Shown piece after piece: positions 21,520 through 42,346 of a stretch of DNA of 64,000 bases. The stretch's first letter is position 1; every line of letters starts with the position of its first letter. This DNA comes from an uncultured Candidatus Saccharibacteria bacterium (GTDB taxonomy: Bacteria > Patescibacteriota > Saccharimonadia > Saccharimonadales > JAGQNJ01): positions 58,946 to 122,945 of the forward strand of contig CAYRRR010000001.1 of NCBI GenBank assembly GCA_964426755.1. Reading direction: 5' to 3'. Position numbers and translations under genes: made by a program. The notes under the pieces are model-generated. The model had not been told where the DNA came from, did not search any database, and saw only the letters and a program-made list of their open reading frames with translations.

Positions 21520-21556
21520 TTGATTGAGTTTCTTCCGAAATAATTAGGAGTTTTGC

Positions 21557-22273: not shown

Positions 22274-22319
22274 TGTTGAAAAACAGATAAGAGTACCGTA
22301 TAATATCTCAGTCTCATAG

Positions 22320-22396
22320 GGGCGCTTAGCTCAGCTGGCTAGAGCACTTCGTTTACACCGAAGGGGTCGGGGGTTCGAGTCCCTCAGCGCCCACCA
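22320..22396 (+). tRNA. tRNA-Val (anticodon TAC), CCA encoded
   Basis: Acceptor GGGCGCT/AGCGCCC. Anticodon stem CTTCG/CGAAG with loop TTTACAC. T arm GGGGG-TTCGAGT-CCCTC. TATAAT box at 22299-22304. Confidence 0.93.
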
Positions 22397-22406
22397 TACA
22401 AATAGT

Positions 22407-22429
22407 CCATCCGAAAGGATGGGTTTTTT
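22407..22429 (+). terminator. rho-independent terminator after tRNA-Val
   Basis: CCATCC-GAAA-GGATGG hairpin followed by G and T6. The outer TACAAA/TTTGTA pairing extends the stem. Confidence 0.7.
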
Positions 22430-22560
22430 GTATGGGTATTGTCTAGGCTTAGCCTATGATCCCCCGGGTCGGGGTGAGAGCTGCCTGTGGCAGTTTGCAA
22501 GGAAGTCTTCTCTTGAAAGCTTGCTTTCAAAGATGAAGTTTCGGGCCTGTCGAATCTAGG

Positions 22561-22582
22561 TCGAGTCCCTCAGTGTCTACTA
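22561..22582 (+). repeat. decayed direct copy of the tRNA-Val 3' end (T-loop to CCA)
   Basis: TCGAGTCCCTCAGTGTCTACTA versus tRNA TCGAGTCCCTCAGCGCCCACCA. The first 13 nt are identical and the remaining 9 nt differ only by four C-to-T transitions. Confidence 0.7.
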
Positions 22583-22672
22583 TAAAGTACCGATCATTGT
22601 TAACCGGTTTTTAAGTACAAAATTTTAAAATTTATAATTCTCGACTATACTCGTAATTATAAATAAAGGAGT

Positions 22673-23413: not shown

Positions 23414-23464
23414 CTTGTTAAAAAGTTTACAAGCGAAGCTTAAAAGCAGGCTTATAATTTTATT

Positions 23465-23824
23465 ATGGCAGGTGAAGAGTATATTCGGGTTGCAGCAAGT
23501 AATCTGCAGCGGGCAGCAGTTGCTAAGCAAAATGAAGCTAACGAAATTCGAGTTCAAATTGGCAGACTGGAAGAAGAGCGTCATAAAAAAGTCCAAGATA
23601 TTGAGTCAGAGGTCAATCGCAACAATGCAATCTCGTCAAACCCAAATGTTGATGATGAACGGCGTGCACTTGCAGCACGACAGAGCATTAAATTAGAAAG
23701 CGATCGCTCGAACCTTGAGAATGATATTGCTCACCGGCGGTCGCAATTAGAGCAAAAATTGAGAGAGATTGAAGACCAAGCTCGTGACTGGCAAGATAAA
23801 GTCAGTGAGCTTACTAATCTGTAG
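23465..23824 (+). CDS. coiled-coil protein (119 aa), unknown function
   Basis: Sequence is highly charged and heptad-like throughout (RVQIGRLEEERHKKVQDIESEV...LEQKLREIEDQARDWQDKV). It follows the SPFH gene. Confidence 0.55.
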   Translation: MAGEEYIRVAASNLQRAAVAKQNEANEIRVQIGRLEEERHKKVQDIESEVNRNNAISSNPNVDDERRALAARQSIKLESDRSNLENDIAHRRSQLEQKLREIEDQARDWQDKVSELTNL

Positions 23825-24000
23825 TAATTGTAATTTCACCCCTGATCCGCTATTATAAGTTTGCCTTATTCTTAATTTAGGGGTCCCCAACTTGAGGGGA
23901 TTCAAGTTGGGAAAAGGTACTGACTATATTTGTTGTATTGTGGTTTTTTGGAAGCTTTGCTTTCAAAAAGCTTCGATATCAAATATTTACGCAGTGATGT

Positions 24001-24076
24001 GGCGCTTTAGCTCAGTTGGTAGAGCAGAGGCCTGAAGAGCCTTGTGTCCCCAGTTCGAGTCTGGGAGGCGCCACCA
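24001..24076 (+). tRNA. tRNA-Phe (anticodon GAA), CCA encoded
   Basis: Acceptor GGCGCTT/AGGCGCC. Anticodon stem GAGGC/GCCTT with loop CTGAAGA. T arm CCCAG-TTCGAGT-CTGGG. Confidence 0.95.
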
Positions 24077-24221
24077 TAAATATTTTGTAACCTTTCGGCT
24101 AGAAAATATTTATCATGTTCACCAAGCGCGAACTGGATAGCTACGAAGCAGCCAGTTCGTTCGTAAGAAACTATCGCAGGAGCTTGCTCCGAGAAAGTTT
24201 AGAAGCGTGCCGAAGGCAGCC

Positions 24222-24237
24222 CTGGAAGGCGCCACCA
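24222..24237 (+). repeat. direct copy of the tRNA-Phe 3' end
   Basis: CTGGAAGGCGCCACCA versus tRNA CTGGGAGGCGCCACCA, 15 of 16 identical. It ends 161 nt after the tRNA 3' end. Confidence 0.75.
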
Positions 24238-24271
24238 GTTTAAAAAAATAAGGGCGGGATGCCCTTTTATT

Positions 24272-25666
24272 ATGTCTGAAATTGAGCAACTACGACCAAG
24301 AATAGTCGGTACTGAGCTTGAGTTTGGGGTAGCGTTCGAGTTAAGAGGCGGCTATCGTCATCTAACTTCACCGTACAAACTTTTACTGAATAATATACCG
24401 ACAAATGTTATATCACATCGTAATAATCCAACCTCCAATGATTATTTTTTAGAAAATGGTGGTCGTTATTATCTGGATATGAGACATCATTGGGAGTATG
24501 CGACTCCAGAATGTGCTACTTTTGCTGACGCTGTTACGTATGACATTGCGGGTGAAGATTTTATTTGCGACCATTTTAGCTCACCGCTTGCTCAAGAAAT
24601 TTTCGAAAATGCTGGTATATTTAAGAAAGTTTCTGATCATAGTGAAGGTCAGACGCAGACTGCTGGAGCGCACGAGAACTATCACACGGATAGAATTAAT
24701 CTTGGATTTGAATATAACAGGAAAAAAAGTCTTTTTGTAGCTGGTCTTGCATCTCATCTAATAACTCGCTCGGTTTTTACTGGTGCTGGTTCAGTAGATG
24801 CCGATGGGGTGTTTCATAAAACTCAAAAGTTGCGCACCCTCACACGAACACAAAGCGGAAGCACCACCAGCGACAAGCCCATAGTTAACACACGTATTGA
24901 GTCTCTGGCAGAAGGGGAGCATGAGCGCGTGCATATAATCAGCGGGGATCCAAACATTTCACCGTGGGCTGGATGGATGAAGCTTGGCACCACTAGCCTT
25001 GTTCTGCGATTACTGGAGCATAGTTCATTTCCCATAGAAGCAGTTATTGCTAATGAGCGCATGGTAGAAGCGGCTGTCGCAATAGGCAGTACTGCTGCGC
25101 TTGACACATTGGTTGTCATTGAAGGTGGAAAAAGCGCCACGGCATTAGATGTTCAAGAAATAGTATTTGATGCTGCAGAAGAGCTAGGCAGAAAATATGA
25201 GTTACCACCTGAGGAGTACGCAGTTTTGGGCGAATGGGAAGCCGTAATACAAGATTTACGTCAAGACCCAGAGAGGTGCATGGACAGAATCGATTGGCTT
25301 TCTTGCCGTTACGTTATCGAAAGTGCCGTTAATGCAGAAGAAAGAAAAAAACGAGACCTCGGGTACACTATGCTATACCCCGGTGGTGGTTTTGGACTTA
25401 AACTGAGGGATCGTAGCAGATTTAAGATGACACCTACCAGGGAAGAGATTGTTCGCGCACGAACCACTCCGCCTGCTGACACTCGGGCTGTGCTAAGAGG
25501 AGAGGCTATACGCCAATTTAAAATGAATAATGTAAATGGAGTAATCGGCTGGGATTTTGCGCGTAACGACACTAAGCCTAAAAAAATTGCCAGAATTATG
25601 TTTAATGACCCTTATGACCATGATGTCAGTAGGCTAAATAAGTGGCTTAAGGCTACTCTTAGCTAA
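24272..25666 (+). CDS. Pup ligase / Pup deamidase family protein (PafA/Dop-like carboxylate-amine ligase)
   Basis: 464 aa with family blocks in canonical order: RIVGTELEFG, ENGGRYYLDMRHHWEYATPEC, GAHENY, PIVNTR, RVHIISGDPNIS, MKLGTTSLVLRLLE, ATALDVQ, IDWL and TPPADTRAVLRGEAI. No SD seen. Confidence 0.82.
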   Translation: MSEIEQLRPRIVGTELEFGVAFELRGGYRHLTSPYKLLLNNIPTNVISHRNNPTSNDYFLENGGRYYLDMRHHWEYATPECATFADAVTYDIAGEDFICDHFSSPLAQEIFENAGIFKKVSDHSEGQTQTAGAHENYHTDRINLGFEYNRKKSLFVAGLASHLITRSVFTGAGSVDADGVFHKTQKLRTLTRTQSGSTTSDKPIVNTRIESLAEGEHERVHIISGDPNISPWAGWMKLGTTSLVLRLLEHSSFPIEAVIANERMVEAAVAIGSTAALDTLVVIEGGKSATALDVQEIVFDAAEELGRKYELPPEEYAVLGEWEAVIQDLRQDPERCMDRIDWLSCRYVIESAVNAEERKKRDLGYTMLYPGGGFGLKLRDRSRFKMTPTREEIVRARTTPPADTRAVLRGEAIRQFKMNNVNGVIGWDFARNDTKPKKIARIMFNDPYDHDVSRLNKWLKATLS

Positions 25667-25714
25667 TGAAACTTGAGATATAATGTGAAATAACGTATAA
25701 TTTTCCTCTGTTAT

Positions 25715-25790
25715 GCGGGTGTAGCTCAGTTGATAGAGCGCTTCCTTGCCAAGGAAGAGGCCACGAGTTTGAGTCTCGTCACCCGCACCA
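25715..25790 (+). tRNA. tRNA-Gly (anticodon GCC), CCA encoded
   Basis: Acceptor GCGGGTG/CACCCGC. Anticodon stem CTTCC/GGAAG with loop TTGCCAA. T arm ACGAG-TTTGAGT-CTCGT. TATAAT box at 25696-25701. Confidence 0.95.
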
Positions 25791-25819
25791 AACACATTTT
25801 AGAAAATGACCTCAATAAA

Positions 25820-25843
25820 ACGTCGAGCAAATCGGCGTTTTTT
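25820..25843 (+). terminator. rho-independent terminator after tRNA-Gly
   Basis: ACGTCGA-GCAAA-TCGGCGT hairpin (one G-U pair) followed by T5. Confidence 0.6.
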
Positions 25844-25892
25844 GCTTATACCCAAACTAGGACTCTAACTTCACCTCTGTTATCATATTGTT

Positions 25893-26615
25893 ATGGACAT
25901 TAACCACAAAATTGCCGCAATTAAACAAAAACCTGCTGAATGTATGCAGACTTCGGCAACACAATTACTGTCATTTTTCGACCCTACTATTAAAGTGGAT
26001 GATGTCATTAATGAAGTACCAGTATATGTTGAAAATGGTGAAAAAATAGGCACATCACCAGGCCATTTAGCCACTTACTTTGTTCAAAAAGGCTATAAGA
26101 CGACGGTTTACATATTCGATGTCGAACTATTCGATTTAAGTTGGGAAATGACTAGCGGAAGTGAAATTATTGAATTATTAAAGCAGAGACAAAAATATAT
26201 TCCTGCTAATTCGTGGCTCGCAAAATATCACCATATACTTGTCGACGGATGGGAGTTATTTGTCAAAGCGGGTGGCAGCTTTGCTCAACCCCCTCTCACG
26301 GCGCAGTTAATTAAAGATTTGCTTATAAAAAGTCCAATCTTAGTTATGGTTAACTCCACATACCTTAATCATCAATCAAAACAGCAATACGATAAAAAGA
26401 AAGATAAATTTGAGGACGACGCGATTAAAGGCCGCTCGCTAACTCATGGGGTTACATGCACGGGATATAAAGATGGTAGATTTTTGATTGTTGACCCCGA
26501 CCCACCTGAGGGGCGAGAACAGCACCGCTGGATACAGTCAGACCACCTGATTGCTTCTATAATGGCCGCACAAACCGAATCTGATAACCTGCTGATGGTC
26601 ATAGAGCAAGAATAA
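25893..26615 (+). CDS. putative papain-fold / peptidase C39-like cysteine peptidase
   Basis: 240 aa. Q-x5-C pattern near the N-terminus (KQKPAECMQTSATQLL). Candidate His and Asp later in the protein (SLTHGVTCTGY, LIVDPD). The call is based on motifs only. Confidence 0.45.
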   Translation: MDINHKIAAIKQKPAECMQTSATQLLSFFDPTIKVDDVINEVPVYVENGEKIGTSPGHLATYFVQKGYKTTVYIFDVELFDLSWEMTSGSEIIELLKQRQKYIPANSWLAKYHHILVDGWELFVKAGGSFAQPPLTAQLIKDLLIKSPILVMVNSTYLNHQSKQQYDKKKDKFEDDAIKGRSLTHGVTCTGYKDGRFLIVDPDPPEGREQHRWIQSDHLIASIMAAQTESDNLLMVIEQE

Positions 26616-26646
26616 CTCTCACCAACTTTCTTGGTATGATGTAAAT

Positions 26647-27483
26647 ATGCAGACTAAATCAGGTAAGAAATTATTTCCTATTGGTATAGGGACATGGAAC
26701 ATCGGTGGTACTTTTAATCCGAACGACCCGACCTCCAAGTATAAGGGTGCAGAGCCTAGCTATGAAAACGAACAAGAAGAAGTCGAGGCAATCCGATATT
26801 CCATTGAGAAAGGTCAAAATCATATTGATTGTGCTGAGTTATACGGCGCATTCCATACCGATGAAGTTGTCGGTAAGGCTATTGCTGGATTGAATCGTGA
26901 AGATTTGTATATTGCAGATAAACTCTGGAAAACGAGCGTGGGCAATGGTTTAGTGCGGCCTACAGTCGAGAAAATGCTAAAAAAGCTCGGAACAGATTAT
27001 CTAGATATGCTTTATATTCATGCACCTTGGGAAGAAATTGATTGGCATGAAGCTATTCCTCAGATTGATGAGTTGATTGACGAAGGAGTTGTAAAAGACT
27101 TTGGAGTAAGTAACTTTAATGTAGCCGATATGGAGAAAGCTCGAAAGATTGCCAAACACCCAATCGTTGCAAATCAAATGAATTACAATGTGCTATATAA
27201 AGATGAAGTAAACAAAGAATTTAAGATATATTTGATAGAGAACAACATACAGCTTGTTGCTTACCAACCAATAAAGAGACAAGCCGTGTTAGATAACGAA
27301 ACAATTCAAGCAATCGCAGATCTCCATAGTTCCACACCTGCACAGATAGCCCTTGCATGGCTTATCGCACAAAACGCTTTGCCGATACCTAAAGCAGTTA
27401 ATAAAAAGCATATAGATGAAAATGTCGAAGCAGTGGCAATAAAATTGACCGATGAAGAACTAGGAGCGTTAAACCAGCTTTAA
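26647..27483 (+). CDS. aldo/keto reductase
   Basis: 278 aa. AKR blocks GIGTWNIGG, IDCAELYG, LDMLYIHAP, GVSNF and PIPKA. Confidence 0.9.
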   Translation: MQTKSGKKLFPIGIGTWNIGGTFNPNDPTSKYKGAEPSYENEQEEVEAIRYSIEKGQNHIDCAELYGAFHTDEVVGKAIAGLNREDLYIADKLWKTSVGNGLVRPTVEKMLKKLGTDYLDMLYIHAPWEEIDWHEAIPQIDELIDEGVVKDFGVSNFNVADMEKARKIAKHPIVANQMNYNVLYKDEVNKEFKIYLIENNIQLVAYQPIKRQAVLDNETIQAIADLHSSTPAQIALAWLIAQNALPIPKAVNKKHIDENVEAVAIKLTDEELGALNQL

Positions 27484-27605
27484 CAGACTAAATCAGCTTG
27501 TAGATTAAACTGACTTACCAGCTCTTTTAGTTTATAATTGTCTACATTGTCAGGAGAAGCGGTTAGAAATATGTCAGCTATCCGGCACCATGATAAAGTC
27601 GTAAG

Positions 27606-27630
27606 AGACGTCCAAACGGATGTCTTTTTT
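27606..27630 (+). terminator. rho-independent terminator after the aldo/keto reductase gene
   Basis: AGACGTCC-AAAC-GGATGTCT hairpin (one G-U pair) running into a T-run. Confidence 0.7.
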
Positions 27631-27658
27631 AATTCAACTTTAGATTTACATGATAGAC

Positions 27659-27688
27659 TTGACCAATACCCCCAGGGGGTATTAGAAT
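27659..27688 (+). promoter_or_regulatory. promoter of the copper operon with an embedded CsoR-type operator palindrome
   Basis: TTGACC at 27659-27664 and TAGAAT at 27683-27688. The spacer holds the perfect inverted repeat AATACCCCC-A-GGGGGTATT (27665-27683). G/C-tract palindromes of this type are typical CsoR operators. Confidence 0.65.
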
Positions 27689-27694
27689 GAAAGT

Positions 27695-27979
27695 ATGATT
27701 AGTGATATTAAGAAACGAGCATTGCACCGAGCCAAGATTTTAGAAGGTCAAATGCGTGGTATCCAAAAGATGATTGAAAACGAAAATTACTGTATGGACA
27801 TACTCACGCAGAGTCTTGCTATCAAAAAGTCCATCGGTTCATTAAATAAGTTAATACTTGAGAACCACGTGCGAACACACATACAGGAGAATCTTGGTTC
27901 TGGCTCGGCTAAAGATCACGAAAAAGCCGTTGAGGAGCTACTGGCCTTATACGAGCTATCAAATGTAAGAAGTAAGTAA
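27695..27979 (+). CDS. csoR: CsoR/RcnR/FrmR-family metal-sensing transcriptional repressor
   Basis: 94 aa. LHRAKILEGQMRGIQKMIENENYCMDILTQSLAIKKSI is the DUF156 core and includes the Cys of the metal site. Confidence 0.85.
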   Translation: MISDIKKRALHRAKILEGQMRGIQKMIENENYCMDILTQSLAIKKSIGSLNKLILENHVRTHIQENLGSGSAKDHEKAVEELLALYELSNVRSK

Positions 27980-27986
27980 AGGGGGA

Positions 27987-28427
27987 ATGATGAAAAAAGA
28001 AAGCATTATGGTCGGCATTATCGGGTTGCTGGCTGGATTACTAATAGCTGGCTCAGCAGCGGTGCTAGCCGTTAACAACGACAATCACTCAATGATGGGT
28101 ATGATGGGTATGGACGCTAGTCACTCACATCAGCAAGAGGCATCAAATCACGGCGAGATGTCTATGAGCGAAATGACCCAGCAGCTCAAAAACAAAACGG
28201 GTGATGATTTTGACAAGGCATTTATTGAAATGATGATAAGCCATCACGAAGGTGCAGTAGATATGGCAGAGCTCATCCCCTCACGCGCTAAGCATGATGA
28301 AGTTAAGCAACTTGGCGAGGCAATTATTACTGCTCAAACTAAAGAAATTGCTGATATGAAGCAGTGGCAAAATGACTGGGGTTACTCTACTGATGAAATG
28401 ATGGATATGATGCACGGCAGTCACTAA
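27987..28427 (+). CDS. DUF305 family protein (exported, Met/His-rich, copper-resistance associated)
   Basis: 146 aa. N-terminal TM/signal segment. Met/His-rich segment MMGMMGMDASHSH. DUF305 block DFDKAFIEMMISHHEGAVDMA. Confidence 0.85.
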   Translation: MMKKESIMVGIIGLLAGLLIAGSAAVLAVNNDNHSMMGMMGMDASHSHQQEASNHGEMSMSEMTQQLKNKTGDDFDKAFIEMMISHHEGAVDMAELIPSRAKHDEVKQLGEAIITAQTKEIADMKQWQNDWGYSTDEMMDMMHGSH

Positions 28428-28428
28428 A

Positions 28429-30450
28429 ATGGACCACTCACACCACAGCAATCACCAACATTCAGAGCATCAAGAACACGACAAGCATGCTGGACACAGC
28501 CCGAATATGTTCAAGGCTAAATTTTGGTGGAGCTTGCTATTAACGATACCAGTACTTTTGTATTCGGAAACAGTCATGAGCTGGTTGAACTTCCAGATGC
28601 CAGCATTTACAGGAAGTGAGTGGATACCAGCGATTTTAGGTATTGTTATCTATTTCTACGGGGGCATGGTCTTTCTTAGAGGTGCGAAAGCCGAAATTGC
28701 TTCTCGCATACCTGGAATGATGACCCTAATCTCGATGGCAATAACGGTTGCCTTCACTTACAGTCTTGCCGTATCGCTTAATTTGGTAGATGGCATGGAC
28801 TTCTGGTGGGAGCTAGCAACGCTCGTAACGATCATGCTACTTGGTCACTGGCTAGAAATTGCAAGCGTCAGCAATGCACAAGGGGCTCTAAAAGAGTTAG
28901 CAAAGTTACTGCCTGATAAAGCCGAGAAAGTAACATCTGAGGGTACTCAAAGTGTTGCAGTATCTGAGTTAAGAGTGGGTGACAACGTATTGGTTCGTCC
29001 TGGTTCGAGCGTGCCAGTTGATGGAGAAGTTATTAAGGGTGAATCTGATGTAAACGAGTCAATGTTAACGGGTGAATCCAAACCGATGAAGAAGAAGGTC
29101 AAAGACGAGGTAATCGCAGGCACGATTAACGGCAGCGGTGCTTTGACGATAAAAGTTACAAAAACAGGCGATGATACCGCGTTAGCAGGAGTCATGAAGC
29201 TAGTTGCTGACGCGCAAAAAAGTAAATCGAGGACTCAAGTTCTTGCTGACAAAGCAGCCTTCTACCTAACTTTTATTGCAATAGCGGCGGCAATTGCAAC
29301 TATGGTTGGTTGGACATTGTTCAGCAACGAGTCAACTTCATTCGTACTTGAGCGAGTTGTAACAGTATTGATCATTGCCTGTCCTCACGCTCTCGGCTTG
29401 GCGATCCCGCTCGTCACAGCTATATCAACTACTACTGCAGCTAAAAATGGTCTACTGGTGCGCCAACGCATGGCTTTAGAATTAGCGCGAAATATTGATG
29501 TCGTGCTTTTTGACAAAACCGGAACCCTTACCAAAGGAGAACAGGGCGTAGTAGATATTTATGCAGCCGACAATGATAAAAACAAATTACTAGCACTGGC
29601 GGCTGCGGTTGAGTCAGAGTCAGAACACCCAATTGCTAGAGCAATTATGCTCTCGGCAGATGAACGCAATCTCAAAATTAGAAAATCCAATAAGTTTTCT
29701 GCCCTCTCAGGACGAGGGGCAAAAGCAATTGTAGACGGTAGAACCATACATGTTGGAGGGCCTAGACTTCTTGAAGAACTTAAAGCAGATCCAACGCAAG
29801 AATTAGCTATTGCTGCCGATACTGCCGGTAAAGATGGCAAAACTGTCGTCTATGTAATAGAAGACAACAAAATATTAGGTGCAGTCATGCTGGCTGATGC
29901 AATCCGTGAAGAGTCAAAAAATGCGATTTCTCTTCTGCGGTCCTCTGGAATGCAGGTAGCTATGCTTACGGGAGATTCCCAGGAAGTGGCTGCTTGGGTA
30001 GCTAAAGAGTTGGACATTGATGAGTACTTCGCAGAAGTATTGCCCGAAAACAAGGCAGCAGTTGTCAGTAGACTGCAGTCTGACGGTAGCCGTGTGGCGA
30101 TGGTAGGCGATGGGGTGAATGACGCGCCGGCTCTTGCTCAAGCCGATGTTGGCATTGCGATTGGTGCCGGCACAGACGTAGCTATTGAAGCAGCTGGCAT
30201 AATACTTGCAAGTAGTGATCCTCGAGGGGTGGCAAAAATCGTAAAATTATCCAAAGCTACTTACCGTAAGATGGTACAAAATCTTGTTTGGGCAACCGGA
30301 TACAATGTCTTGGCCATTCCCTTGGCAGCGGGAGTGCTGGCAGGCTTTGGTTTTGTGCTATCACCGGCAGCCGGTGCAGTGCTGATGTCTCTCTCGACAA
30401 TTATTGTCGCTGCAAACGCCCAACTGCTGCGGCGACTGCACCTTAATTAG
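28429..30450 (+). CDS. copB: copper-translocating P1B-type ATPase with His-rich N-terminus and CPH motif (CopB-like)
   Basis: 673 aa. N-terminus [26 protein letters not shown] motif ([11 protein letters not shown]). [15 protein letters not shown] and TGES motifs present. Confidence 0.9.
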
Positions 30451-30678
30451 CTATCGGGAATCACACCAAAGTGCTTTTGAGATTAGTCAATGATCTAAGT
30501 TATTTATAGATATTAATATGTGCTGTCGTAGCAGAGTGTTAGAGCATGTTGATATCCGATACTAGACCACAGTCACTTAATTGTTCCAATAGAGCGTTTA
30601 AATAAGTCAGCGTACGTATGGTTATTAATATCTGGTGAAATTGTACTTTAGAACACTTATGGTTGTTATACTTGGATT

Positions 30679-31533
30679 ATGAAAAAAATCTTATCAATAC
30701 TTGTCCTGTCATTTTTTGTTGTTATCACCGTATCGTCGTCTGCCTTTGCTGCAAAGCCAGACAAGGTAGGTAAGCCTAAACCACCGTCTGGAGACAGCAC
30801 AACTGAAATGGTTGGATACGACGTATCTTACCCACAATGCGGCAAGAAGCTACCCACAGATCATTATTTTGGAATAGTGGGAGTTAATGGCGGCAATGCA
30901 GCCACGCCAAACCCTTGTTTGGCCGATCAATTAGTTTGGCAGAGCAAAGCAAAGGATGGCTCGAAGCAATCTAAGTTGCAGCTATATGTAAACACTGCAA
31001 ACCCAGCTCAAGACCCTATGTATAACTGGGAGTCCTGGCCGAAAAGTGGAAGCACCCCTTACGGCTCATGTACGGGCGCAAATGATAAAGCTTGTTCCTG
31101 GCAGTATGGTTGGAACCGCTCCATTTACACCGAAGATGTATTTATAAAAGCTGCTGACGGTAAAGGGCTAAATGCTAACATGAGTGATTATGTTTGGTGG
31201 CTAGATGTAGAAACGATGAACTCATGGCAATCAGGTTCATCAGAGGCATTGGCTCGCAACCAAGCAGCCATTGAGGGTTTTGCGGCTTATTACCAATCAA
31301 AGGATGCTCGGGTTGGTCTATACTCAACGGAATACCAATGGGGCGAGATTGTCGGTAGGACTTTAATTACCGATGGCAACTTGGTTGGCTTGCCTAACTG
31401 GCGACCTAGCGGGGCTAACCTAACAAATGCAATAAATAACTGTAGCGCCGCTGTGCCACTCACTAGTAGTGGTCAGATAGTTCTTACACAGTACGTTAAA
31501 AAGAATCTGGATCACAACCATTCTTGTTTATAA
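30679..31533 (+). CDS. secreted protein, DUF1906 / glycoside-hydrolase-like domain
   Basis: 284 aa. Signal peptide (MKKILSILVLSFFVVITVSSSAFA). The GYDVSYPQCG and FGIVGVNGG blocks resemble the Rv2525c-like GH-like domain. Confidence 0.55.
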   Translation: MKKILSILVLSFFVVITVSSSAFAAKPDKVGKPKPPSGDSTTEMVGYDVSYPQCGKKLPTDHYFGIVGVNGGNAATPNPCLADQLVWQSKAKDGSKQSKLQLYVNTANPAQDPMYNWESWPKSGSTPYGSCTGANDKACSWQYGWNRSIYTEDVFIKAADGKGLNANMSDYVWWLDVETMNSWQSGSSEALARNQAAIEGFAAYYQSKDARVGLYSTEYQWGEIVGRTLITDGNLVGLPNWRPSGANLTNAINNCSAAVPLTSSGQIVLTQYVKKNLDHNHSCL

Positions 31534-31670
31534 ATAATTAGTAATAGTATTTAAATTGCATTTAGTTTTATAATTTTCGATTTATACGTTACGGCCTGTT
31601 TTCTACGCTCTTTAGTTCATTGACAATAGAATTCATTATTGTTACGATTTAATTTCGTGCCAAAAACAAA

Positions 31671-32243
31671 ATGATCGAAAGGAGCTTGGTATTTATGGGT
31701 ATTCTTCCTCGTGAAATTGGTGAAATTCCTGAAGGTTTTGAGAATCATGACGGTTTATATTTACCCTTTCCAGCCGCTGTTGAAGACGATGAACTAAGGG
31801 AGTCTTTGAAGAGGGCTAAACGGTATACACCGCAAGAAGCTGCCCAGTATATAAACAATGGCTATATTCCTCCGGCAGGTAGCGTAATAGAATACCCCTC
31901 TACTGGTGATGATTTAGAAAATGCTGGGGCTTATGACTTAGTTGCTGCAGAGTTCGACAATCGAATCCTAAGAATATATCCCACATCTAAAGAAGCGGTA
32001 GATCCTGCAACTCATGAAGTGAGGGGGCAGGGATTAGTAGTACTATCGTTAACTGTCGAGCGCTTACGGCCAGTCAAGGTGGCGGCACCAGAAAGCATGA
32101 AGTATTGGCTAGGATCACGCGCAATTATACGCAGCAATGTAGTATATGCTAACATTGATTTTGCGGCTCGACGTGATTTTGAGAAAAAAGATATAACTCC
32201 TGACGGAGTCATTATAGCAACTGAAAGACGTAGATATTTTTAG
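31671..32243 (+). CDS. hypothetical protein (190 aa)
   Basis: Long ORF with no family recognised. An AAAGGAG-like sequence overlaps the start region, so the true start may be the internal ATG (MGILPRE). Confidence 0.45.
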   Translation: MIERSLVFMGILPREIGEIPEGFENHDGLYLPFPAAVEDDELRESLKRAKRYTPQEAAQYINNGYIPPAGSVIEYPSTGDDLENAGAYDLVAAEFDNRILRIYPTSKEAVDPATHEVRGQGLVVLSLTVERLRPVKVAAPESMKYWLGSRAIIRSNVVYANIDFAARRDFEKKDITPDGVIIATERRRYF

Positions 32244-32406
32244 GATTATAAAGTAATAATCGAAAGATTTATTATTAAAATAAAGAATAGATATACAACA
32301 AGCCAAATGCTATTCTCTATAGTAAAGCGAATATGAGAAGCACTTGAATATTAGCCAGGTGATACTTTGAAATACATGAGCAAAATTAATAGTAGGACGT
32401 AAGTGC

Positions 32407-32706
32407 ATGAGTGCCACGCAAAAATCATCAAAGAGCGATCTTAAAGCCATAATGTCAGGAACAATTGCATTATTGATAATACCGTTAGTAGCCATGCAGT
32501 TTAATGCGGAAGTAGATTGGGGTTTGAGAGATTTTGTGATTATGGGAATTTTGTTATTTGGTGCTGGTTTTGCGATTGATCAGATTGCACGTAACGCTCG
32601 TAAGCAATATCAAGCACTATATATACTGCTCCTAGTAGCGTTGTTCTTTCTGGTTTGGGCTGAGCTTGCGGTTGGCGTGATTGGATCACCCTTTGCTGGC
32701 AATTAG
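32407..32706 (+). CDS. small membrane protein (99 aa, three TM helices)
   Basis: Hydrophobic helices. No family recognised. Confidence 0.45.
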   Translation: MSATQKSSKSDLKAIMSGTIALLIIPLVAMQFNAEVDWGLRDFVIMGILLFGAGFAIDQIARNARKQYQALYILLLVALFFLVWAELAVGVIGSPFAGN

Positions 32707-32891
32707 GTGCAGAAACGATTGGTTTATATGTTTAGCTAAATTCAGACGTTAGTCTTCTCTCCCAGAAGGGGACCTTACTAAAGTAAGCATCAAACAGCTT
32801 ATCCTCATCCATTTCTATTAGGCTTTCTTCAGCTGCCATATGTGTAAGCTACACTACACATAGCTTTCAGTAAGAAAAAATCGTTACTTCT

Positions 32892-34604
32892 TTACAAACC
32901 GAGTTCTTTACGATGATAGTCTTCGTTTCGATTTTCTATTGCTTTTGCTTGGCGCCATCGTCCATAGAAGTTAACCGCCAGCAGCGCTCCAAAGGCGACA
33001 CCGCCAATTACCACCAAGAAGATCATTATTTTTATGAATGTTGGCATAGATTTCTTTTTACCTAATACAGCAAAGGACGTAGAATTCTCAAGATTAAATG
33101 AGCCTTTGCCGTCAGTAAAATCTCCTTTTACCGATTGCCACTCATGCTGTTCATCCAGGATGTAATACGCAAATTGGCTGTAATTTGTATTTGGTGAGCT
33201 GACCGTAACTTGCAGAGGCTTACTAAAAGTAGCGATTTTATTACCGGAAGCCGTTTTACATATAACTTCATACGGCCCCGATACGGTTACGAAATCCTTT
33301 TGAGAAGGTATTGATACGTCATAATTGCCTTGCAATGAGCATGAGGCATCTTCATCAATTGCATCAGATGGAATAAATACCGAAACCAAACCATCGTCAC
33401 TATTCAGTGTTGTGCCCTCAGCGCTTGTATTAGGCAAAAAGGGTGGCGTTGTAACTTCAGTTGTAGCATATTCTGATTTTTCTCCTCCTTGGTCAACAGC
33501 TCTCAGGCGATAGTAGTAAGTTGTTTCGAACTGTGTGGTCGTATCAGTAAAAGACTCGTTGGTGATTAGGTCTGATCCAAGTACTTGCCAGGTTTCGTTA
33601 TCAGCTGAACGATCAATTTCATAGTTTTGTAATATGCCCGCATAATTTGGTCGATCCCATCTAAGCTGGACCGCTACATCATCTTCAACAGTAGCGCTAA
33701 ATCCCGTAGGAACTGGTGGTGTTGGATTAGGGTCTTGCTGAGGCGGCTGTGCTGGATTTGTTGGTGTAGGTGTTGAGCCGCGTGGACTTGAAGGAGTTGA
33801 AGGCCTGCCTGGCGAGGGGGGTGGAGGCGACGACGGTGGATTGTGTATGTTTACCGTACGAGTTGCACTGCCTGTTCCTGCGCCATTTGAGCACGCTAAA
33901 GTGTACGTTTTTGTGCCAGCTGTAGTTGTATCACCAGACCGATTCTCACTACCTGACGCAGCTTTGCCACCGCTCCAGCTTCCTGATGCTGTACAGTTTG
34001 TAGGATTGTTTGTTGCAGACCATGCTAGAGTCAGCCCGTTGCCGCGGGTTAGATTTAATGTTCCTGTTTGGTTATTGGCGGTTAACGAAACTGCAGGCGG
34101 GTTTGTAACTAGTATTGATCGACCAGTACAAGGGTTTCGCACATAGCCCGTAAACACAATTCCCATACCCCAGTTAAATGAATAATTGCCAGGCTGCGAG
34201 GGTGCTCTAACGGTAATATTAAATGTTGCGATACCACCCGGACCTACATCATTACTTAGGTTGGTTCCTGTGGCATTCCATACTGCTCCTCCGTCTCTAA
34301 ATTCCCATAATGCGATTCCGAACTTGCCGCTGAATGTTGAGCTTCCGGAATTTCTAATACGTATTCGAGCCGTAAAAGTTTCACCTGGCCTTACGATTGT
34401 TTTGCTGGGTGAATTTTCTACACAAGTGGCAGCATGGGGCGGATTAGGGGCATACGTTACTGCTGCTTCGGTGCGCAGTAATAAGATAGTTCCGCCAACA
34501 GCAGCAAACACAACAGTAAACCATAATAAGCGGTGAAATGGCTTAGAAGGTAGTTTTGTCGCCAACTTAATAACTGACTGAAGTTTGTGTTTGACTTTAT
34601 TCAT
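32892..34604 (-). CDS. large cell-surface protein: N-terminal anchor/signal, Ig/CARDB-like domains, Pro-rich linker, fibronectin type III domain, C-terminal TM anchor
   Basis: 570 aa. Linker PPSSPPPPSPGRPSTPSSPRGSTPTPTNPAQPPQQDPNPTPPVP. FN3-like block VQLRWDRP...YYYRLRAVDQGGEKSEY. C-terminal helix IMIFLVVIGGVAFGALLAV followed by a basic tail. Confidence 0.75.
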   Translation of the reverse strand: MNKVKHKLQSVIKLATKLPSKPFHRLLWFTVVFAAVGGTILLLRTEAAVTYAPNPPHAATCVENSPSKTIVRPGETFTARIRIRNSGSSTFSGKFGIALWEFRDGGAVWNATGTNLSNDVGPGGIATFNITVRAPSQPGNYSFNWGMGIVFTGYVRNPCTGRSILVTNPPAVSLTANNQTGTLNLTRGNGLTLAWSATNNPTNCTASGSWSGGKAASGSENRSGDTTTAGTKTYTLACSNGAGTGSATRTVNIHNPPSSPPPPSPGRPSTPSSPRGSTPTPTNPAQPPQQDPNPTPPVPTGFSATVEDDVAVQLRWDRPNYAGILQNYEIDRSADNETWQVLGSDLITNESFTDTTTQFETTYYYRLRAVDQGGEKSEYATTEVTTPPFLPNTSAEGTTLNSDDGLVSVFIPSDAIDEDASCSLQGNYDVSIPSQKDFVTVSGPYEVICKTASGNKIATFSKPLQVTVSSPNTNYSQFAYYILDEQHEWQSVKGDFTDGKGSFNLENSTSFAVLGKKKSMPTFIKIMIFLVVIGGVAFGALLAVNFYGRWRQAKAIENRNEDYHRKELGL

Positions 34605-34744
34605 AGTAGACTTATCTTAATTATAGCGGTTTTATCATTGACTGCTAAATGTATTACTATGATTTTATTGCTTAAATGCTTTGCAAGTATTAAATTTGCT
34701 TACTTTTAGCGTTTTTTTGATAGAATAACAGGGTAAGTATAACT

Positions 34745-34818
34745 GGCGCGGTGGCCGAGGAGTTAGGCAAGGGTCTGCAAAACCCTGTACACGGGTGCGA
34801 ATCCCGTCCGTGCCTCCA
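34745..34818 (+). tRNA. tRNA-Cys (anticodon GCA), CCA encoded
   Basis: Acceptor GGCGCGG/CCGTGCC. Anticodon stem AGGGT/ACCCT with loop CTGCAAA. Discriminator U73 is the Cys identity element. T arm ACGGG-TGCGAAT-CCCGT. Confidence 0.9.
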
Positions 34819-34906
34819 GGGCGAGTGGCGGAACTGGTATACGCGACGGACTTAAAATCCGTTGGTTGAATAAACCTTGAGGGTTCGAGTCCCTCCTCGC
34901 CCACCA
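34819..34906 (+). tRNA. tRNA-Leu (anticodon TAA), type II, CCA encoded
   Basis: Acceptor GGGCGAG/CTCGCCC. Anticodon stem ACGGA/TCCGT with loop CTTAAAA. Long variable arm. T arm GAGGG-TTCGAGT-CCCTC. It starts at the nucleotide right after the tRNA-Cys CCA. Confidence 0.92.
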
Positions 34907-39413: not shown

Positions 39414-39489
39414 CTTCATATAAGCATTAGTTGTATAACCTAGAGTAATTCGTGCGTCGTTAGAGCGGCGCGTGAAACAAACACTTTTC

Positions 39490-39512
39490 AAAAAACCACC
39501 CGCCGCGGGTGG
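39490..39512 (-). terminator. rho-independent terminator (minus-strand sense), second of two after the cytochrome b5-like gene
   Basis: CCACCCG-CCG-CGGGTGG hairpin with an A6 run on the plus strand, which is T6 after the hairpin on the minus strand. Confidence 0.6.
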
Positions 39513-39527
39513 GCACGCACGAAAACC

Positions 39528-39555
39528 ATAACTCCGGTATGATAACCGGAGTTAT
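39528..39555. terminator. perfect 10-bp hairpin between convergent ligA and the cytochrome b5-like gene (probably bidirectional terminator)
   Basis: ATAACTCCGG-TATGATAA-CCGGAGTTAT, flanked by T-rich sequence on both strands. Confidence 0.6.
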
Positions 39556-39561
39556 TTATAA

Positions 39562-39969
39562 TTAATTTGAAAGGCTGCCAATTAGATATTGCTCACGGAG
39601 ATTTCGTGCAGTAGATGAATGGCTGCCTTCGCCATCTTTCGTATTGAAGGCTTGGGTTGCATCCTCGCCACAATAGGGGCTAATACGGTCAGCACCGCCA
39701 GGATGTTCACTTAAGAAATTAGTTACGTTGTACACTTTATTTTCAATAATGATCCAACAATCCTCGTCATTGTCATGCCGTTTTATCTCATCAAGGCTGT
39801 AGGTTTGGCTTTGATTTGATTCAGTTTGTTGTGTTGTCTGCTCAGTTGAAACAGGAGAATTAGTTGTTTGGGTTGTGGCTTCATCTCTGCCCGCCAAGTA
39901 ACCTCCAATAAGCACGCTACCTGCGATTACAGCGGTTATTATAATGGCGATTAAAACGACTTTTTTCAT
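39562..39969 (-). CDS. membrane-anchored cytochrome b5-like heme-binding protein
   Basis: 135 aa. N-terminal TM helix, a T/Q-rich linker, then a b5 fold (CWIIIENKVYNVTNFLSEHPGG...GEGSHS) with two candidate axial histidines. Confidence 0.75.
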   Translation of the reverse strand: MKKVVLIAIIITAVIAGSVLIGGYLAGRDEATTQTTNSPVSTEQTTQQTESNQSQTYSLDEIKRHDNDEDCWIIIENKVYNVTNFLSEHPGGADRISPYCGEDATQAFNTKDGEGSHSSTARNLREQYLIGSLSN

Positions 39970-41261
39970 GATAATGAGAACTCCTCGTAGTGAATATTAG
40001 CTTTTTTAACGCCTAAGGTTATGAGTTGGGTTTCTAGGCTCTTCATCATAGGCGGTGGCCCGCAAAGTAAAACCTCTTGGCCAATGCCGGTTTTCTGCTT
40101 AATGGTTTCAGCTGTTAAAAAACCGTCTTTATCAGTATATACAGGAAAAATGTTGAACAAAGCGTTTTTTGTGGCGATTTTTTGTAATTCAGCTAAAAAG
40201 ACAGCCTCTGACGGCTGCTTTACGCAATAATACATATCAATTTTTATATGTTGAGGATTACTGCGCGCCATTGATAGAAAGGGAGTGATACCGATGCCGC
40301 CCGCTATCCAGGTTTGGTGCGTGCCACCGATTTTAGTAGATGAAAATTGTCCATATGGACCGTCTACTCGTGCTTTATCGCCTGCTTTAAGGAGCGGGAT
40401 TCGACTTGTATAATCCCCAACATTTTTGATACTAAAAACGAGTCGATCATCGGATGAGCCCGAGCTTATCGTAAAAGGGTGCTGTTCATCAGGTACACCT
40501 TTGCTATTAAAGCTCACAAACGCAAACTGGCCCGCATAACGCTGCAAAGACTTGTCGAGAGGCTTTAGCGCCACAATAGCGACGAGCTCTTTTACATGAA
40601 CGGACTCTACAATATAGTCATAGGTGCGCTGCAGCGAACGATGAAAAATGGATCGATACATATAAATAACTGCAGCGGTGCCACCAAGCAAAATCATATA
40701 GATAAATAGGGGTGTTATGTGTCGGATATCGCTGCCATCAACAAACAAAGCATGATAACCGCCAATAAACACCACGAAACCCATAACTCGTTGCGCGGTG
40801 ATGAACCATTGATACTTGACCTTAAAATATACCACGACTATCATGGCACTTGTTAAAGTCAATAAAGCAAATCGTCCCGCAATCAGTGCAAAGTCGCTGG
40901 TGTCAGTAAGGAATGAATATCCAGTTTTGACAGATATGCTTGCATTGAGAAGAATTAATATATTGGCATGCAGGAGCAGGCTCAACAGTGTAAGGCAGCC
41001 AATTGTGTGATGGACACGATACATTCTATCCAGGCCATGAAACAGTCTGCCTAGAATTTTAAGCCGGGCACTTAGAATCACATTAATTGATAATAACGAT
41101 ACGCCAACCAATCCTGCCCAGCGAGCGATTACATCCCATGAAATATCACGCCATCCAAACAGACTCCATAAAACGACGGGTGTTAGGGCTAGAAAAGCAA
41201 CAAGGGCGGAGCCGGCAAGGGGTCGTTTCATTACGTCAATTATAACGCACAATATCTCCAT
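39966..41261 (-). CDS. ferric-reductase-domain flavocytochrome (NOX/FRE-like: 6-TM heme domain plus FAD and NAD(P)H-binding domains)
   Basis: 431 aa. Paired histidines in TM helices (VHHTIGCLTLLSLLLHA; YHALFVDGSDIRH). FAD motif HPFTISS. NAD(P)H motifs WIAGGIGITP and LLCGPPPM. Confidence 0.8.
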   Translation of the reverse strand: MEILCVIIDVMKRPLAGSALVAFLALTPVVLWSLFGWRDISWDVIARWAGLVGVSLLSINVILSARLKILGRLFHGLDRMYRVHHTIGCLTLLSLLLHANILILLNASISVKTGYSFLTDTSDFALIAGRFALLTLTSAMIVVVYFKVKYQWFITAQRVMGFVVFIGGYHALFVDGSDIRHITPLFIYMILLGGTAAVIYMYRSIFHRSLQRTYDYIVESVHVKELVAIVALKPLDKSLQRYAGQFAFVSFNSKGVPDEQHPFTISSGSSDDRLVFSIKNVGDYTSRIPLLKAGDKARVDGPYGQFSSTKIGGTHQTWIAGGIGITPFLSMARSNPQHIKIDMYYCVKQPSEAVFLAELQKIATKNALFNIFPVYTDKDGFLTAETIKQKTGIGQEVLLCGPPPMMKSLETQLITLGVKKANIHYEEFSLS

Positions 41262-41285
41262 GCACGGAGATTTGTAGATGTAAAT

Positions 41286-41362
41286 TGGTGGAGTGTACCG
41301 GGCTCGAACCGGTGACCTCTTGCCTGCCAGGCAAACGCTCTAGCCAACTGAGCTAACACCCC
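41286..41362 (-). tRNA. tRNA-Ala (anticodon GGC), CCA encoded
   Basis: The reverse complement folds with acceptor GGGGTGT/ACACTCC, including the G3-U70 Ala identity pair. Anticodon stem TTTGC/GCAAG with loop CTGGCAG. T arm ACCGG-TTCGAGC-CCGGT. Confidence 0.93.
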
Positions 41363-41389
41363 AAGAATAGATAAATTCTACAATACTTT

Positions 41390-42346
41390 ATGTTTATTGA
41401 CCAGTCGGGACTGTTTTCTTGTTACAATAAGCATGTGGCAAATTTTGATAGTGACACAAAACTGGTTTACATCAAAACGAGTATTATTGTTTGTATATTT
41501 TTGCTGATTGGTCTCATCTGGATTTGGTGGGTTGTTATTTATACCAGCCCTGAAGCGGTATTTAGGGCAATGCTTAAGAATAGCTTAAGCACGACAGGTG
41601 TCACAAAAACGATTGTGCAAGAAGATCAAACCGGTTCCTTAGAGCAAATTTCTCAGGCACATTTTGGTGCCAACAATTATGTAGATGTACGCACTACAAT
41701 TAGTCAAGAGAACGAATCAGGCAAAACAAAAATTGTTACTCAGACGATAGGTGATAGCAAAGATAATTATGTACGATATACCAATATTGAAATTCCTGGG
41801 CAAAACAATAAGCCTGACCCAGATTTCTCATCGTTGATTAATGTGTGGGGCAAACAGGCCGAGCCACAAACCAACGAGAATGTTTTTACTGAAGCCGTTT
41901 TTGGTGCGGTTTTGTTTGGTTTCTTACCCACAGACAAAAGAGGCGAGCTGCTTGATAGGATTGCTCGCGACGATATTTATGAAGCAGATTTCGACAGTGT
42001 TGAGCGCACCAGACACGAAGGTCGCAATGTTTATGTATATGACGTAAAAATTAAAACTGCAAAATATATTGAACTGCTCAAAAACTATGATCGTATGCTT
42101 GGACTTTCATTAACTGCAGGTCTAGAGCCGGATGTATATAATGACGCCTCGCCAATCAATGTCAAAATAACGGTAGACAGAGCGAGCCGAAACCTTGTTA
42201 AGCTTGAATATGGTGATCAGGCGAGAACTGAGGAGTACGGCGGTTATGGTATTCATCGCGAGCTACAACCACCAGACAAGCCAATAAGTCGTTCAGAGCT
42301 TGAATCTAAGCTACAAGACGTGCTAACCGAGAGCCAGATGCAATGA
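41390..42346 (+). CDS. hypothetical membrane-anchored exported protein (318 aa)
   Basis: One N-terminal TM helix (IIVCIFLLIGLIWIWWVVIY) followed by a hydrophilic domain. No family recognised and the start is uncertain. Confidence 0.55.
   Translation: MFIDQSGLFSCYNKHVANFDSDTKLVYIKTSIIVCIFLLIGLIWIWWVVIYTSPEAVFRAMLKNSLSTTGVTKTIVQEDQTGSLEQISQAHFGANNYVDVRTTISQENESGKTKIVTQTIGDSKDNYVRYTNIEIPGQNNKPDPDFSSLINVWGKQAEPQTNENVFTEAVFGAVLFGFLPTDKRGELLDRIARDDIYEADFDSVERTRHEGRNVYVYDVKIKTAKYIELLKNYDRMLGLSLTAGLEPDVYNDASPINVKITVDRASRNLVKLEYGDQARTEEYGGYGIHRELQPPDKPISRSELESKLQDVLTESQMQ

Follow-up and report, generated by a model that had tools for sequence, protein, structure and literature searches.

A stretch of 64,000 nucleotides from an uncultured Candidatus Saccharibacteria bacterium (GenBank assembly GCA_964426755.1, contig CAYRRR010000001.1, positions 58,946 to 122,945; the whole stretch is called the window below) carries two overlapping genes whose products we read, with moderate confidence, as a two-component, quinone-independent electron-export unit, in which electrons would pass from NAD(P)H through FAD and haems to an external cytochrome b5. 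Both genes are minus-strand open reading frames (ORFs): gene 1 (41261..39966; 431 aa) encodes a transmembrane (TM) flavocytochrome and gene 2 (39969..39562; 135 aa) a small membrane-anchored cytochrome b5, and the stop of the first shares four nucleotides, ATGA, with the start of the second. The original prediction, made from the letters of the sequence, had described this two-gene module with its overlap and its bracketing by tandem terminators and a tRNA-Ala gene, and both descriptions hold (Table 1). What was obtained directly for the proposed unit is its homology and predicted fold, the motifs for its cofactors, the coupling of the two genes, their repeated pairing elsewhere and sequence features from which topology can be predicted.

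A SpNOX-type flavocytochrome and its inner-haem site

With Pfam matches counted against gathering scores, gene 1 contains Ferric_reduct (residues 49-167), FAD_binding_8 (224-288) and NAD_binding_1 (319-409) domains. The families named beforehand were recovered with one substitution: Ferric_reduct, FAD_binding_8 and, in gene 2, Cyt-b5 exceed their thresholds, whereas NAD_binding_6 stays under its own and the NAD domain scores as NAD_binding_1. The best solved relative of gene 1 is the NOX of Streptococcus pneumoniae (SpNOX; 8qt6), matched over its full length (E 4.7e-35, phmmer against the PDB) at an identity of only 24%. Exact-sequence look-ups of the gene 1 protein and of its identical database copy, P0001, returned no entry. 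An AlphaFold2 (AF2) model built from 41 homologues has a predicted local distance difference test score (pLDDT) of 91.9 and a predicted template modelling score (pTM) of 0.86. Its top Foldseek matches are SpNOX entries, with a TM-score of 0.83/0.90 and a root-mean-square deviation of 2.7 Å for 8qt6. Pfam, AF2 and Foldseek agree on a six-TM ferric-reductase domain followed by an FNR-like dehydrogenase domain in the SpNOX fold, and the NOX/FRE-like architecture proposed from the sequence is borne out.

Conservation of individual sites in gene 1 was scored in alignments of 41-116 homologues. The predicted FAD (HPFTI) and NAD(P)H (GGIGITP, CGPPP) modules are present and conserved. Published sequence filters for bacterial NOX enzymes (Hajjar et al., 2017; PMC5676040) recognize both motifs: HPFTI (residues 261-265) matches H[PSA]F[TS][LIMV], the FAD filter, with H261, P262 and F263 invariant or nearly so, and GIGITP (322-327), also invariant or nearly so, matches the filter for NAD(P)H binding. 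The C-terminal F428 shows the same degree of conservation in homologues and aligns with F397, which has a gating role in SpNOX (PMC11564096). By homology and predicted fold, gene 1 is a SpNOX-type transmembrane flavocytochrome. In common with SpNOX (8qt6, 8qq7), it is a single chain in which a six-TM ferric-reductase domain is joined to FAD and NAD(P)H domains; the gating Phe, the HPF and GxGxTP motifs and three of the four haem histidines are also kept. It differs from SpNOX, which has been studied as a stand-alone enzyme, in Gln157 at the position of H129, in His207, in an FVxGSD motif in the E-loop and in the coupled, anchored b5.

In SpNOX the inner haem is ligated by H69 and H129 and the outer haem by H83 and H142 (PMC11564096). 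H84, H98 and H170 of gene 1, none of which varies among 116 homologues, align with H69, H83 and H142; H129 of TM5 aligns with Gln157. In the 116 closest homologues column 157 holds His (52 sequences), Gln (33) or Met (31) and nothing else. Bacterial NOX enzymes are recognized by four histidines, arranged as two His-X12/14-His motifs in TM3 and TM5 (Hajjar et al., 2017; PMC5676040). Gene 1 has the H84-x13-H98 pair in TM3 and only H170 in TM5, where the partner position is Q157, and is left with three of the four. The paired histidines that the original prediction placed in two helices are real in TM3; its second motif, YHALFVDGSDIRH, does not stand, as H181 lies in an outer loop and is not conserved (S, Q, R or N in homologues), the H170/H181 spacing is wrong for a bis-His motif and the canonical position is Gln157.

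Gln or Met at position 157 defines the subclade to which the window's own gene belongs. His207, at the cytoplasmic end of TM6, occurs in 60 of the 64 Gln/Met157 sequences and in 1 of the 52 His157 sequences, and the Gln/Met157 group has also gained R82 and lost K154 (replaced by I or V; I154 in the window). These changes at positions 157, 207, 82 and 154 may reflect a concerted remodelling of the inner-haem pocket or plain clade signal. His207 was considered as a replacement axial ligand and rejected: by helix register it lies about 8 residues deeper than the level of the haem, which makes a ligand swap unlikely.

Members of this subclade might have lost the inner haem, either as single-haem proteins like STEAP and MsrQ or through functional decay, in which case the path from NAD(P)H through FAD and two haems would not run as it does in NOX. 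In the STEAP/YedZ state the inner His of TM3 is Arg and the TM5 His is Gln (PMC3591440). Gene 1 shares the TM5 Gln, and the concerted changes of the pocket (K154 to I/V, R82 and H207 gained) would also be in keeping with such a loss. However, the resemblance is only half complete, since H84 is invariant where STEAP/YedZ have Arg and a dehydrogenase domain is fused to the TM domain, and gene 1 falls outside the single-haem STEAP/YedZ (MsrQ) class. Further, column 157 is restricted to His, Gln and Met, of which His and Met are established ligands of haem iron and Gln a speculative one, and strong conservation in the subclade extends over the entire protein, FAD/NAD motifs and F428 included. In SpNOX the distances from FAD to inner haem and from inner to outer haem are each about 10 Å edge to edge (PMC11564096), so that a path that bypassed the inner haem would be too slow to be plausible. 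We regard loss or decay as distinctly improbable, and infer that the inner haem is retained with altered ligation.

The anchored cytochrome b5 and its recurrence beside the flavocytochrome

Gene 2 has the layout and motifs that had been predicted for it: in a protein of 135 aa, a short N-terminus with KK, one N-terminal hydrophobic helix, a T/Q-rich linker and a b5 haem domain with HPGG and GSHS motifs. Its match to Cyt-b5 (PF00173) reaches 1.3e-24, at 86 bits against a cut-off of 23.7, and the best solved match to the domain is cytochrome b558 of Ectothiorhodospira vacuolata (1cxy; E 2e-17), with mammalian b5 next. H89 and H117 align with the haem ligands of 1cxy and of mammalian b5 and are invariant among homologues. 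With HPGG and GHS-type motifs and two axial histidines, gene 2 is a conventional bis-His (‘clade-2’) cytochrome b5 for which haem binding is predicted. C71 and C100 are likewise invariant among b5 homologues, and both align with Cys residues of 1cxy, a protein which we take to be periplasmic and to hold a disulfide bond; counterparts are absent from the cytosolic eukaryotic b5 proteins in the same alignments. The likeness to b558 extends to both haem histidines and both cysteines, whereas b558 is soluble and the b5 of the window is tethered by a TM helix and a low-complexity linker and coupled to a SpNOX-like gene.

The same plan is found in all 22 distinct partner proteins, whose loci are referred to below by number (L001 and so on). 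The hydrophobic helix, of about 19-24 residues, is preceded by 3-13 residues (30 in the weakly matching L021) with 1-3 K/R (8 in L021) and almost no acidic residues, and is followed by a low-complexity S/T/Q/P/N linker; nearly all partners have one disulfide-capable Cys pair per b5 domain. Because of the K/R-rich N-terminus and hydrophobic helix (positive-inside rule), and because of the Cys pair in common with the bacterial b5 1cxy, the protein is probably an N-in/C-out signal anchor with an extracytoplasmic haem domain, the outward orientation that had been expected.

If the b5 lay on the cytoplasmic side and took its electrons straight from the FAD/NAD domain of gene 1, like the b5 of the eukaryotic NADH-cytochrome b5 reductase/b5 couple, the TM haem domain would be irrelevant to it. 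This arrangement can draw on the homology of the dehydrogenase domain to cytochrome b5 reductases (2eix, E 7e-12; Foldseek TMt 0.73), but it conflicts with the N-terminus and long helix, which predict N-in/C-out in 22/22 partners, with a Cys pair absent from cytosolic b5, and with long S/T/Q/P-rich linkers and acidic tails typical of surface proteins. We consider it very improbable. The eukaryotic couple has a homologous FAD/NAD(P)H reductase fold and a bis-His b5, yet it works on the cytosolic face only, with a b5 whose tail anchor is at the C-terminus. In the window pair, a two-haem-type TM domain forms one chain with the reductase, and the b5, anchored by its N-terminus, is predicted on the opposite side.

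The co-occurrence of the two genes elsewhere, which the original prediction had called for, was found in many CPR (candidate phyla radiation) genomes and in three loci labelled as DPANN. Among 80 species-representative genome loci gathered with a profile of gene 1, 20 have a b5 or b5-like ORF directly downstream on the same strand, 15 of them at 50 bits or above and five weaker or divergent (L012, L021, L029, L048, L049); one further downstream candidate, in L045, has a Pfam score below threshold. The 20 b5-linked loci include Saccharibacteria, Paceibacterota, Staskawiczbacteria, Buchananbacteria and Collierbacteria. The three DPANN-labelled loci (L010, L014, L030) come from records that name Pacearchaeota and Woesearchaeota (DPANN archaea), the labels being taken from the records only. 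Most linked loci keep the same 4-nt overlap (L001, L004, L007-L009, L014, L016, L030, L039, L041, L048, L049 and L094). In relatives with 79% and 45% identity a Cyt-b5 gene overlaps the NOX-like stop by 4 nt, the second of them in a wholly different context, and flanking genes differ among the b5-linked loci. In a reverse search, the b5 homologue P0127 had a NOX-like gene upstream with the same overlap. Several further b5 hits lie on contigs equal in length to contigs with NOX-like hits, which suggests, short of proof, that the contigs are shared. In a rough neighbour-joining tree, all b5-linked genes group in a single region of the family where CPR and DPANN predominate, and the window's subclade is b5-linked in all its members. 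The ‘SD’ of the E-loop motif was considered as a docking signature and set aside, since it tracks the whole CPR/DPANN clade, including members without b5, and is confounded by phylogeny.

In three loci the partner has a tandem of b5 domains, two in number, which follow a single N-terminal anchor and are joined by long linkers of low complexity (L016, 6311-7360; L039, 6326-7411; L044, 6242-7084). The partners of L016 and L039 end in an unassigned domain of some 50 aa. A PepSY-like C-terminal domain was considered for the tandem proteins and dropped, as Pfam gave Cyt-b5 only. Acidic, D/E-rich C-terminal tails were observed in the partners of L010, L014, L023 and L044.

Other haem proteins occupy the same downstream position in other lineages. 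The next gene specifies a multi-haem cytochrome c with a signal peptide, about 1090 aa long, in four Rhizobiales loci (L066, L076, L081 and L085; ~6150-9430) and a prokaryotic cytochrome b561 in a Saprospiraceae locus (L037; 6137-6667). Because cytochrome c or b561 fill this position, a haem-protein partner looks like a general theme, with a partner type that varies by lineage. In three CPR/DPANN relatives without b5, overlapping downstream ORFs encode small N-terminally anchored, linker-rich proteins (L018, 6143-6397; L024, 6349-6978; L032, 6317-6670), which may be alternative partners; that of L024, the one of the three that was scanned, has no Pfam match.

The surroundings of the pair were surveyed by scanning 148 neighbouring ORFs from 19 b5-linked loci against Pfam. 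The only recurring neighbours are generic ABC/MacB/FtsX transporters (6-8 hits), and the scanned ORFs include just two response regulators and neither a set of iron-uptake genes nor a redox partner that recurs consistently. The only iron-related neighbour seen is the gene for a low-affinity iron permease (PF04120) in one Patescibacteria relative, where it precedes the pair by about 1.1 kb (L004, 3364-3864; L005, 91-591). These neighbourhoods bear on a role in assimilation, in which gene 1, with or without the b5, would be a ferric (or cupric) reductase acting on extracellular Fe(III) chelates for uptake, like the FRE/FRO enzymes of eukaryotes, a special case of an outward chain. The permease of L004/L005 and the Ferric_reduct match of gene 1 favour such a role, and Fe3+ reduction via cyt-b5 proteins has been a matter of speculation (bioRxiv 10.1101/2021.11.17.468889). 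However, iron-transport genes are not enriched among the scanned neighbours, no iron-uptake gene adjoins the pair in the window, and SpNOX itself does not reduce ferric iron directly (PMC5676040). We judge an uptake reductase to be unlikely.

Gene 1 could also act alone as an oxidase that converts O2 to superoxide or H2O2, the b5 having some other surface role, such as haem binding or scavenging in an organism unable to make haem, or haem delivery to the outer site. SpNOX makes superoxide in vitro (PMC5676040), most family members have no b5 neighbour, and an anchored b5 can occur by itself (L093). On the other hand, the tight gene coupling is kept across distant lineages and differing genomic contexts, electron-transfer cytochromes (c, b561) appear in the same position elsewhere, and the b5 is of the bis-His electron-transfer type rather than the Tyr-ligated MAPR-like type proposed for haem handling. 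In addition, the authors of the SpNOX work doubt that O2 is its physiological acceptor (PMC11564096). In our estimate there is little chance that gene 1 is such an oxidase.

Gene layout, the accessory slot and the wider window

The ATGA overlap suggests translational coupling of gene 1 and b5, and a GAGGAG Shine-Dalgarno-like run ends 11 nt 5' of the b5 ATG, within conserved YEEF codons of gene 1. The true start of gene 1 is almost certainly M11 (ATG 41231; 421 aa), because its closest homologues are 421 aa long, residues 1-11 are disordered in the AF2 model and the upstream ATG in L001 (79% identical to gene 1) meets an in-frame TAG. A TATAAT, considered as a leaderless promoter, lies 7 nt 5' of the M11 ATG (TATACT in L001), with no -35 match and unflagged by the promoter scan; we make no claim for it. 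An inverted repeat, TCTCCGTGCATGGAGA, stands directly after tRNA-Ala at 41251-41266. Between the window and L001 both stem arms are identical, with one mismatch in the loop, and the flanking intergenic bases have diverged; the repeat could have a role in tRNA 3' processing or attenuation. The promoter scan found no more sigma-70-like sites than in shuffled sequence, and the match 5' of the tRNA gene (Table 1) could drive tRNA-Ala and both genes as a single unit.

Table 1. Positions of the features of the two-gene module and its borders in the window
Feature	Position	Strand	Basis or remark
tRNA-Ala (anticodon GGC)	41286..41362	-	ARAGORN and Rfam; directly 5' of the module, marks the edge of the variable slot
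Weak sigma-70-like promoter match TGGTCA-17-TAGAAT, 5' of tRNA-Ala	41375..41403	-	Consensus scan, 9/12 matches
SpNOX-like transmembrane flavocytochrome gene	39966..41261	-	431-aa ORF; conserved start ATG 41231 (M11) gives 421 aa
Ferric_reduct haem-binding TM domain, residues 49-167	40761..41117	-	Pfam; six TM helices at about residues 16-206 (AF2 model)
Haem-site codons H84; H98; Q157; H170	41012-41010; 40970-40968; 40793-40791; 40754-40752	-	Alignment to SpNOX
Clade-specific H207 codon	40643-40641	-	Conservation analysis
FAD-binding domain, residues 224-288; HPF[TS] motif H261-P262-F263	40398..40592	-	Pfam and conservation
NAD(P)H-binding domain, residues 319-409; GGIGITP 321-327, CGPPP 400-404	40035..40307	-	Pfam and conservation
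ATGA stop/start overlap	39966..39969	-	Sequence
Membrane-anchored cytochrome b5 gene, 135 aa	39562..39969	-	Pfam, PDB match, alignment
Predicted b5 N-terminal signal-anchor helix, residues 4-27, MKK before	39889..39960	-	Hydropathy maximum 2.87
b5 low-complexity T/Q/S/N-rich linker, residues 28-54	39808..39888	-	Alignment; predicted disordered
Cytochrome b5 haem domain, residues 55-135	39565..39807	-	Pfam 1.3e-24
b5 haem ligands H89 (HPGG); H117 (GSHS)	39705-39703; 39621-39619	-	Alignment to 1cxy
b5 conserved Cys pair C71; C100	39759-39757; 39672-39670	-	Alignment
First intrinsic-terminator hairpin, 11-bp stem, tail GGTTTTCG	39528..39555	-	Hairpin scan
Second intrinsic-terminator hairpin, 7-bp stem (6 G-C pairs), tail TTTTTT	39496..39512	-	Hairpin scan

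The pair sits in a site that varies among close relatives. The adjoining LigA is 65-67% identical to proteins named Candidatus Saccharimonadales, which upholds the CPR assignment of the host. The block LemA, peptidase M48, a 309-aa protein, LigA, the slot, tRNA-Ala, a protein of about 300 aa and Mur ligase is kept in relatives with 70-74% LigA identity. The same tRNA-Ala stands at the same syntenic site in L001, L086, L087 and L088. Between ligA and this tRNA gene, the window (39414-41285) and L001 hold the NOX-like/b5 pair, L001 with an additional HD/YfbR-like gene; the slot of L087 (8151-9134) holds an acyl-ACP-type fatty-acid desaturase gene (PF03405), and the slots of L086 (8023-8153) and L088 (5979-6126) are empty. 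The pair is an accessory cassette in a variable site beside a tRNA gene, as the same tRNA-Ala slot is empty or otherwise filled in close relatives. No integrase is present. Carriage by mobile elements was considered and rejected: viral contigs hold only distant relatives (27-31% identity), none of them of the window's clade. The neighbours of the pair in the window are ligA, a 318-aa protein without a family match and Mur ligase, and the 64-kb window has one b5 domain and one NOX-like gene only.

Elsewhere in the window, a tRNA array (Leu-Val-Phe-Gly-Cys-Leu; 21433-34906) is spread over 13.5 kb with genes between the tRNAs, and the same array is compact in L086, running from Val to Leu within about 600 nt. 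Among the intervening genes are those for a protein of the SPFH/Band7 type (22673-23413), a member of the Pup-ligase family (24272-25666), a C39-like peptidase, an aldo/keto reductase, a DUF305 protein with a P-type ATPase (27987-30450) and an Ig/fn3 protein of 570 aa. The Pup-ligase-family match (PF03136, E 4e-75) lies here in a Saccharimonadales genome, and pupylation is a trait found mainly in actinobacteria.

The proposed electron route, related systems and significance

In the proposed route, NAD(P)H would give a hydride to FAD in the cytoplasmic C-terminal dehydrogenase domain of gene 1, and FAD would pass single electrons to a haem near the inner face of the membrane (ligand H84, with Gln157 in place of the second His), from which they would reach the haem towards the outer face (H98/H170). 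The b5, translated from the same message by coupling and inserted N-in/C-out, would hold its haem domain beyond the membrane by means of a flexible linker, about 27 residues long, and, as the dedicated, tethered protein acceptor of the outer haem, would shuttle electrons to a terminal acceptor, with Fe(III) or other metals, O2, extracellular flavins and a surface or host redox protein as candidates. Judging from the linker and from the tandem-b5 variants, the b5 may serve as a shuttle or as a short relay that extends outward from the membrane. The outer haem of SpNOX is solvent-exposed, the canonical O2 site is lacking and cytochrome c is reduced directly in the absence of oxygen (PMC11564096, PMC5676040), and a protein acceptor has been suggested as possible for SpNOX-like enzymes (PMC11564096); these published traits fit an outward chain. 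As originally drawn, the chain led from NAD(P)H through FAD and two b haems to an external b5. The SpNOX type of gene 1, the outward prediction for b5 and the co-occurrence of the pair support its general course, whereas its two bis-His b haems are not established because the inner-haem His of TM5 is Gln here. From the evidence at hand we infer haem occupancy of the remodelled inner site, docking of the b5, the outward direction of electron flow and a terminal acceptor of the kinds listed.

Several points weigh against this route. Inner-haem binding is unproven here, since Gln157 replaces the canonical TM5 His and the H69A/H129A double mutant of SpNOX is inactive (PMC5676040). Contact of the b5 with the outer face of gene 1 is a deduction, the topology of the b5 follows from sequence rules, and its AF2 model (12-sequence alignment) has a pLDDT of only 59, with residues 19-51 below 50, too poor for a fold search or for judging Cys-Cys proximity. 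About 59 of the 80 loci of the wider family have no downstream b5, and the enzymes can therefore work without one; conversely, a Roizmanbacteria anchored b5 (P0131; L093) has no adjacent NOX-like gene. No conserved third gene that would mark a terminal acceptor appeared among the scanned neighbour ORFs. To our knowledge, CPR bacteria generally lack haem synthesis, and the three haems would then need to be scavenged.

The pairing itself has been reported before. A search of the literature on CPR or Saccharibacteria ferric reductases or cytochrome b5 found only one preprint, in which 7645 CPR genomes were found to include 1427 with PF01794 genes, and 185 of the 1427 to have a gene with a cyt-b5 domain no more than 10 kb away (bioRxiv 10.1101/2021.11.17.468889). 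Its authors propose that the products form a membrane complex with a function specific to CPR, and state that the pairing does not occur outside CPR. With adjacent, overlapping PF01794 and PF00173 genes, the window pair is an instance of this association. The preprint deals mainly with larger operons, which add to a Tyr-ligated, MAPR-like b5 (cytb5MY) a pair of atypical b5-like proteins (CBLA/CBLB) and a two-component system, whereas the window pair is reduced to two genes, has a bis-His b5, lacks a regulator and falls outside the extended-operon type. The preprint draws no link from the putative ferric reductase (pFre) to SpNOX or NOX and gives no topology or direction of electron flow. The original prediction, which had called such a pair notable in CPR, overstated its case, as the co-localisation in 185 CPR genomes and the proposal of a protein acceptor were already published (bioRxiv 10.1101/2021.11.17.468889; PMC11564096). 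Beyond the known pairing in CPR, the present analysis adds the SpNOX identification, the predicted outward b5, the Gln/Met157-His207 variant, the DPANN-labelled loci, the alternative cytochrome partners in other lineages and the accessory-slot context.

Other systems resemble parts of the proposed unit. In MsrQ-MsrP (YedZ-YedY), a ferric-reductase-domain membrane haem protein serves a dedicated extracytoplasmic partner encoded beside it, an analogy that has been drawn for SpNOX (PMC11564096). MsrQ differs in having no fused dehydrogenase, in receiving electrons from quinol or Fre, in holding one haem, in the Arg that replaces its inner TM3 His and in its molybdoenzyme partner. Flavin-based extracellular electron transfer in Listeria (Ndh2-DMK-EetAB-PplA, DMK being demethylmenaquinone) also carries cytoplasmic NADH electrons to a tethered surface redox protein in a Gram-positive-type envelope. 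The two are not known to be homologous, and the Listeria pathway needs a quinone and flavinylated proteins, whereas the proposed module would need neither.

A wider proposal can be made tentatively, and we hold it to be possible though doubtful: SpNOX-type enzymes would not be oxidases in the first place, but the core of modular, quinone-free electron export, with a neighbour-encoded cytochrome as the acceptor. In CPR bacteria and the DPANN-labelled loci, which lack respiratory chains, tethered single or tandem b5 proteins would then carry NAD(P)H electrons from the cytoplasm over the envelope to external or host-derived acceptors, an electron sink for these fermentative episymbionts, and the Gln/Met157 and His207 subclade would have an inner haem re-tuned for that role. 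For the SpNOX family, the coupled b5, predicted to face outward, offers a concrete and testable candidate acceptor, and the cytochrome c and b561 genes found in the same position elsewhere widen the range of candidates. Gln or Met at a haem-ligand position is in itself a natural experiment on haem tuning in the NOX fold. If the proposed route is true, it would give ultra-small CPR and DPANN cells, which are usually described as purely fermentative, a quinone-independent means of disposing of reducing equivalents or of reducing metals at the cell surface, with a bearing on their redox balance and on their interaction with hosts.

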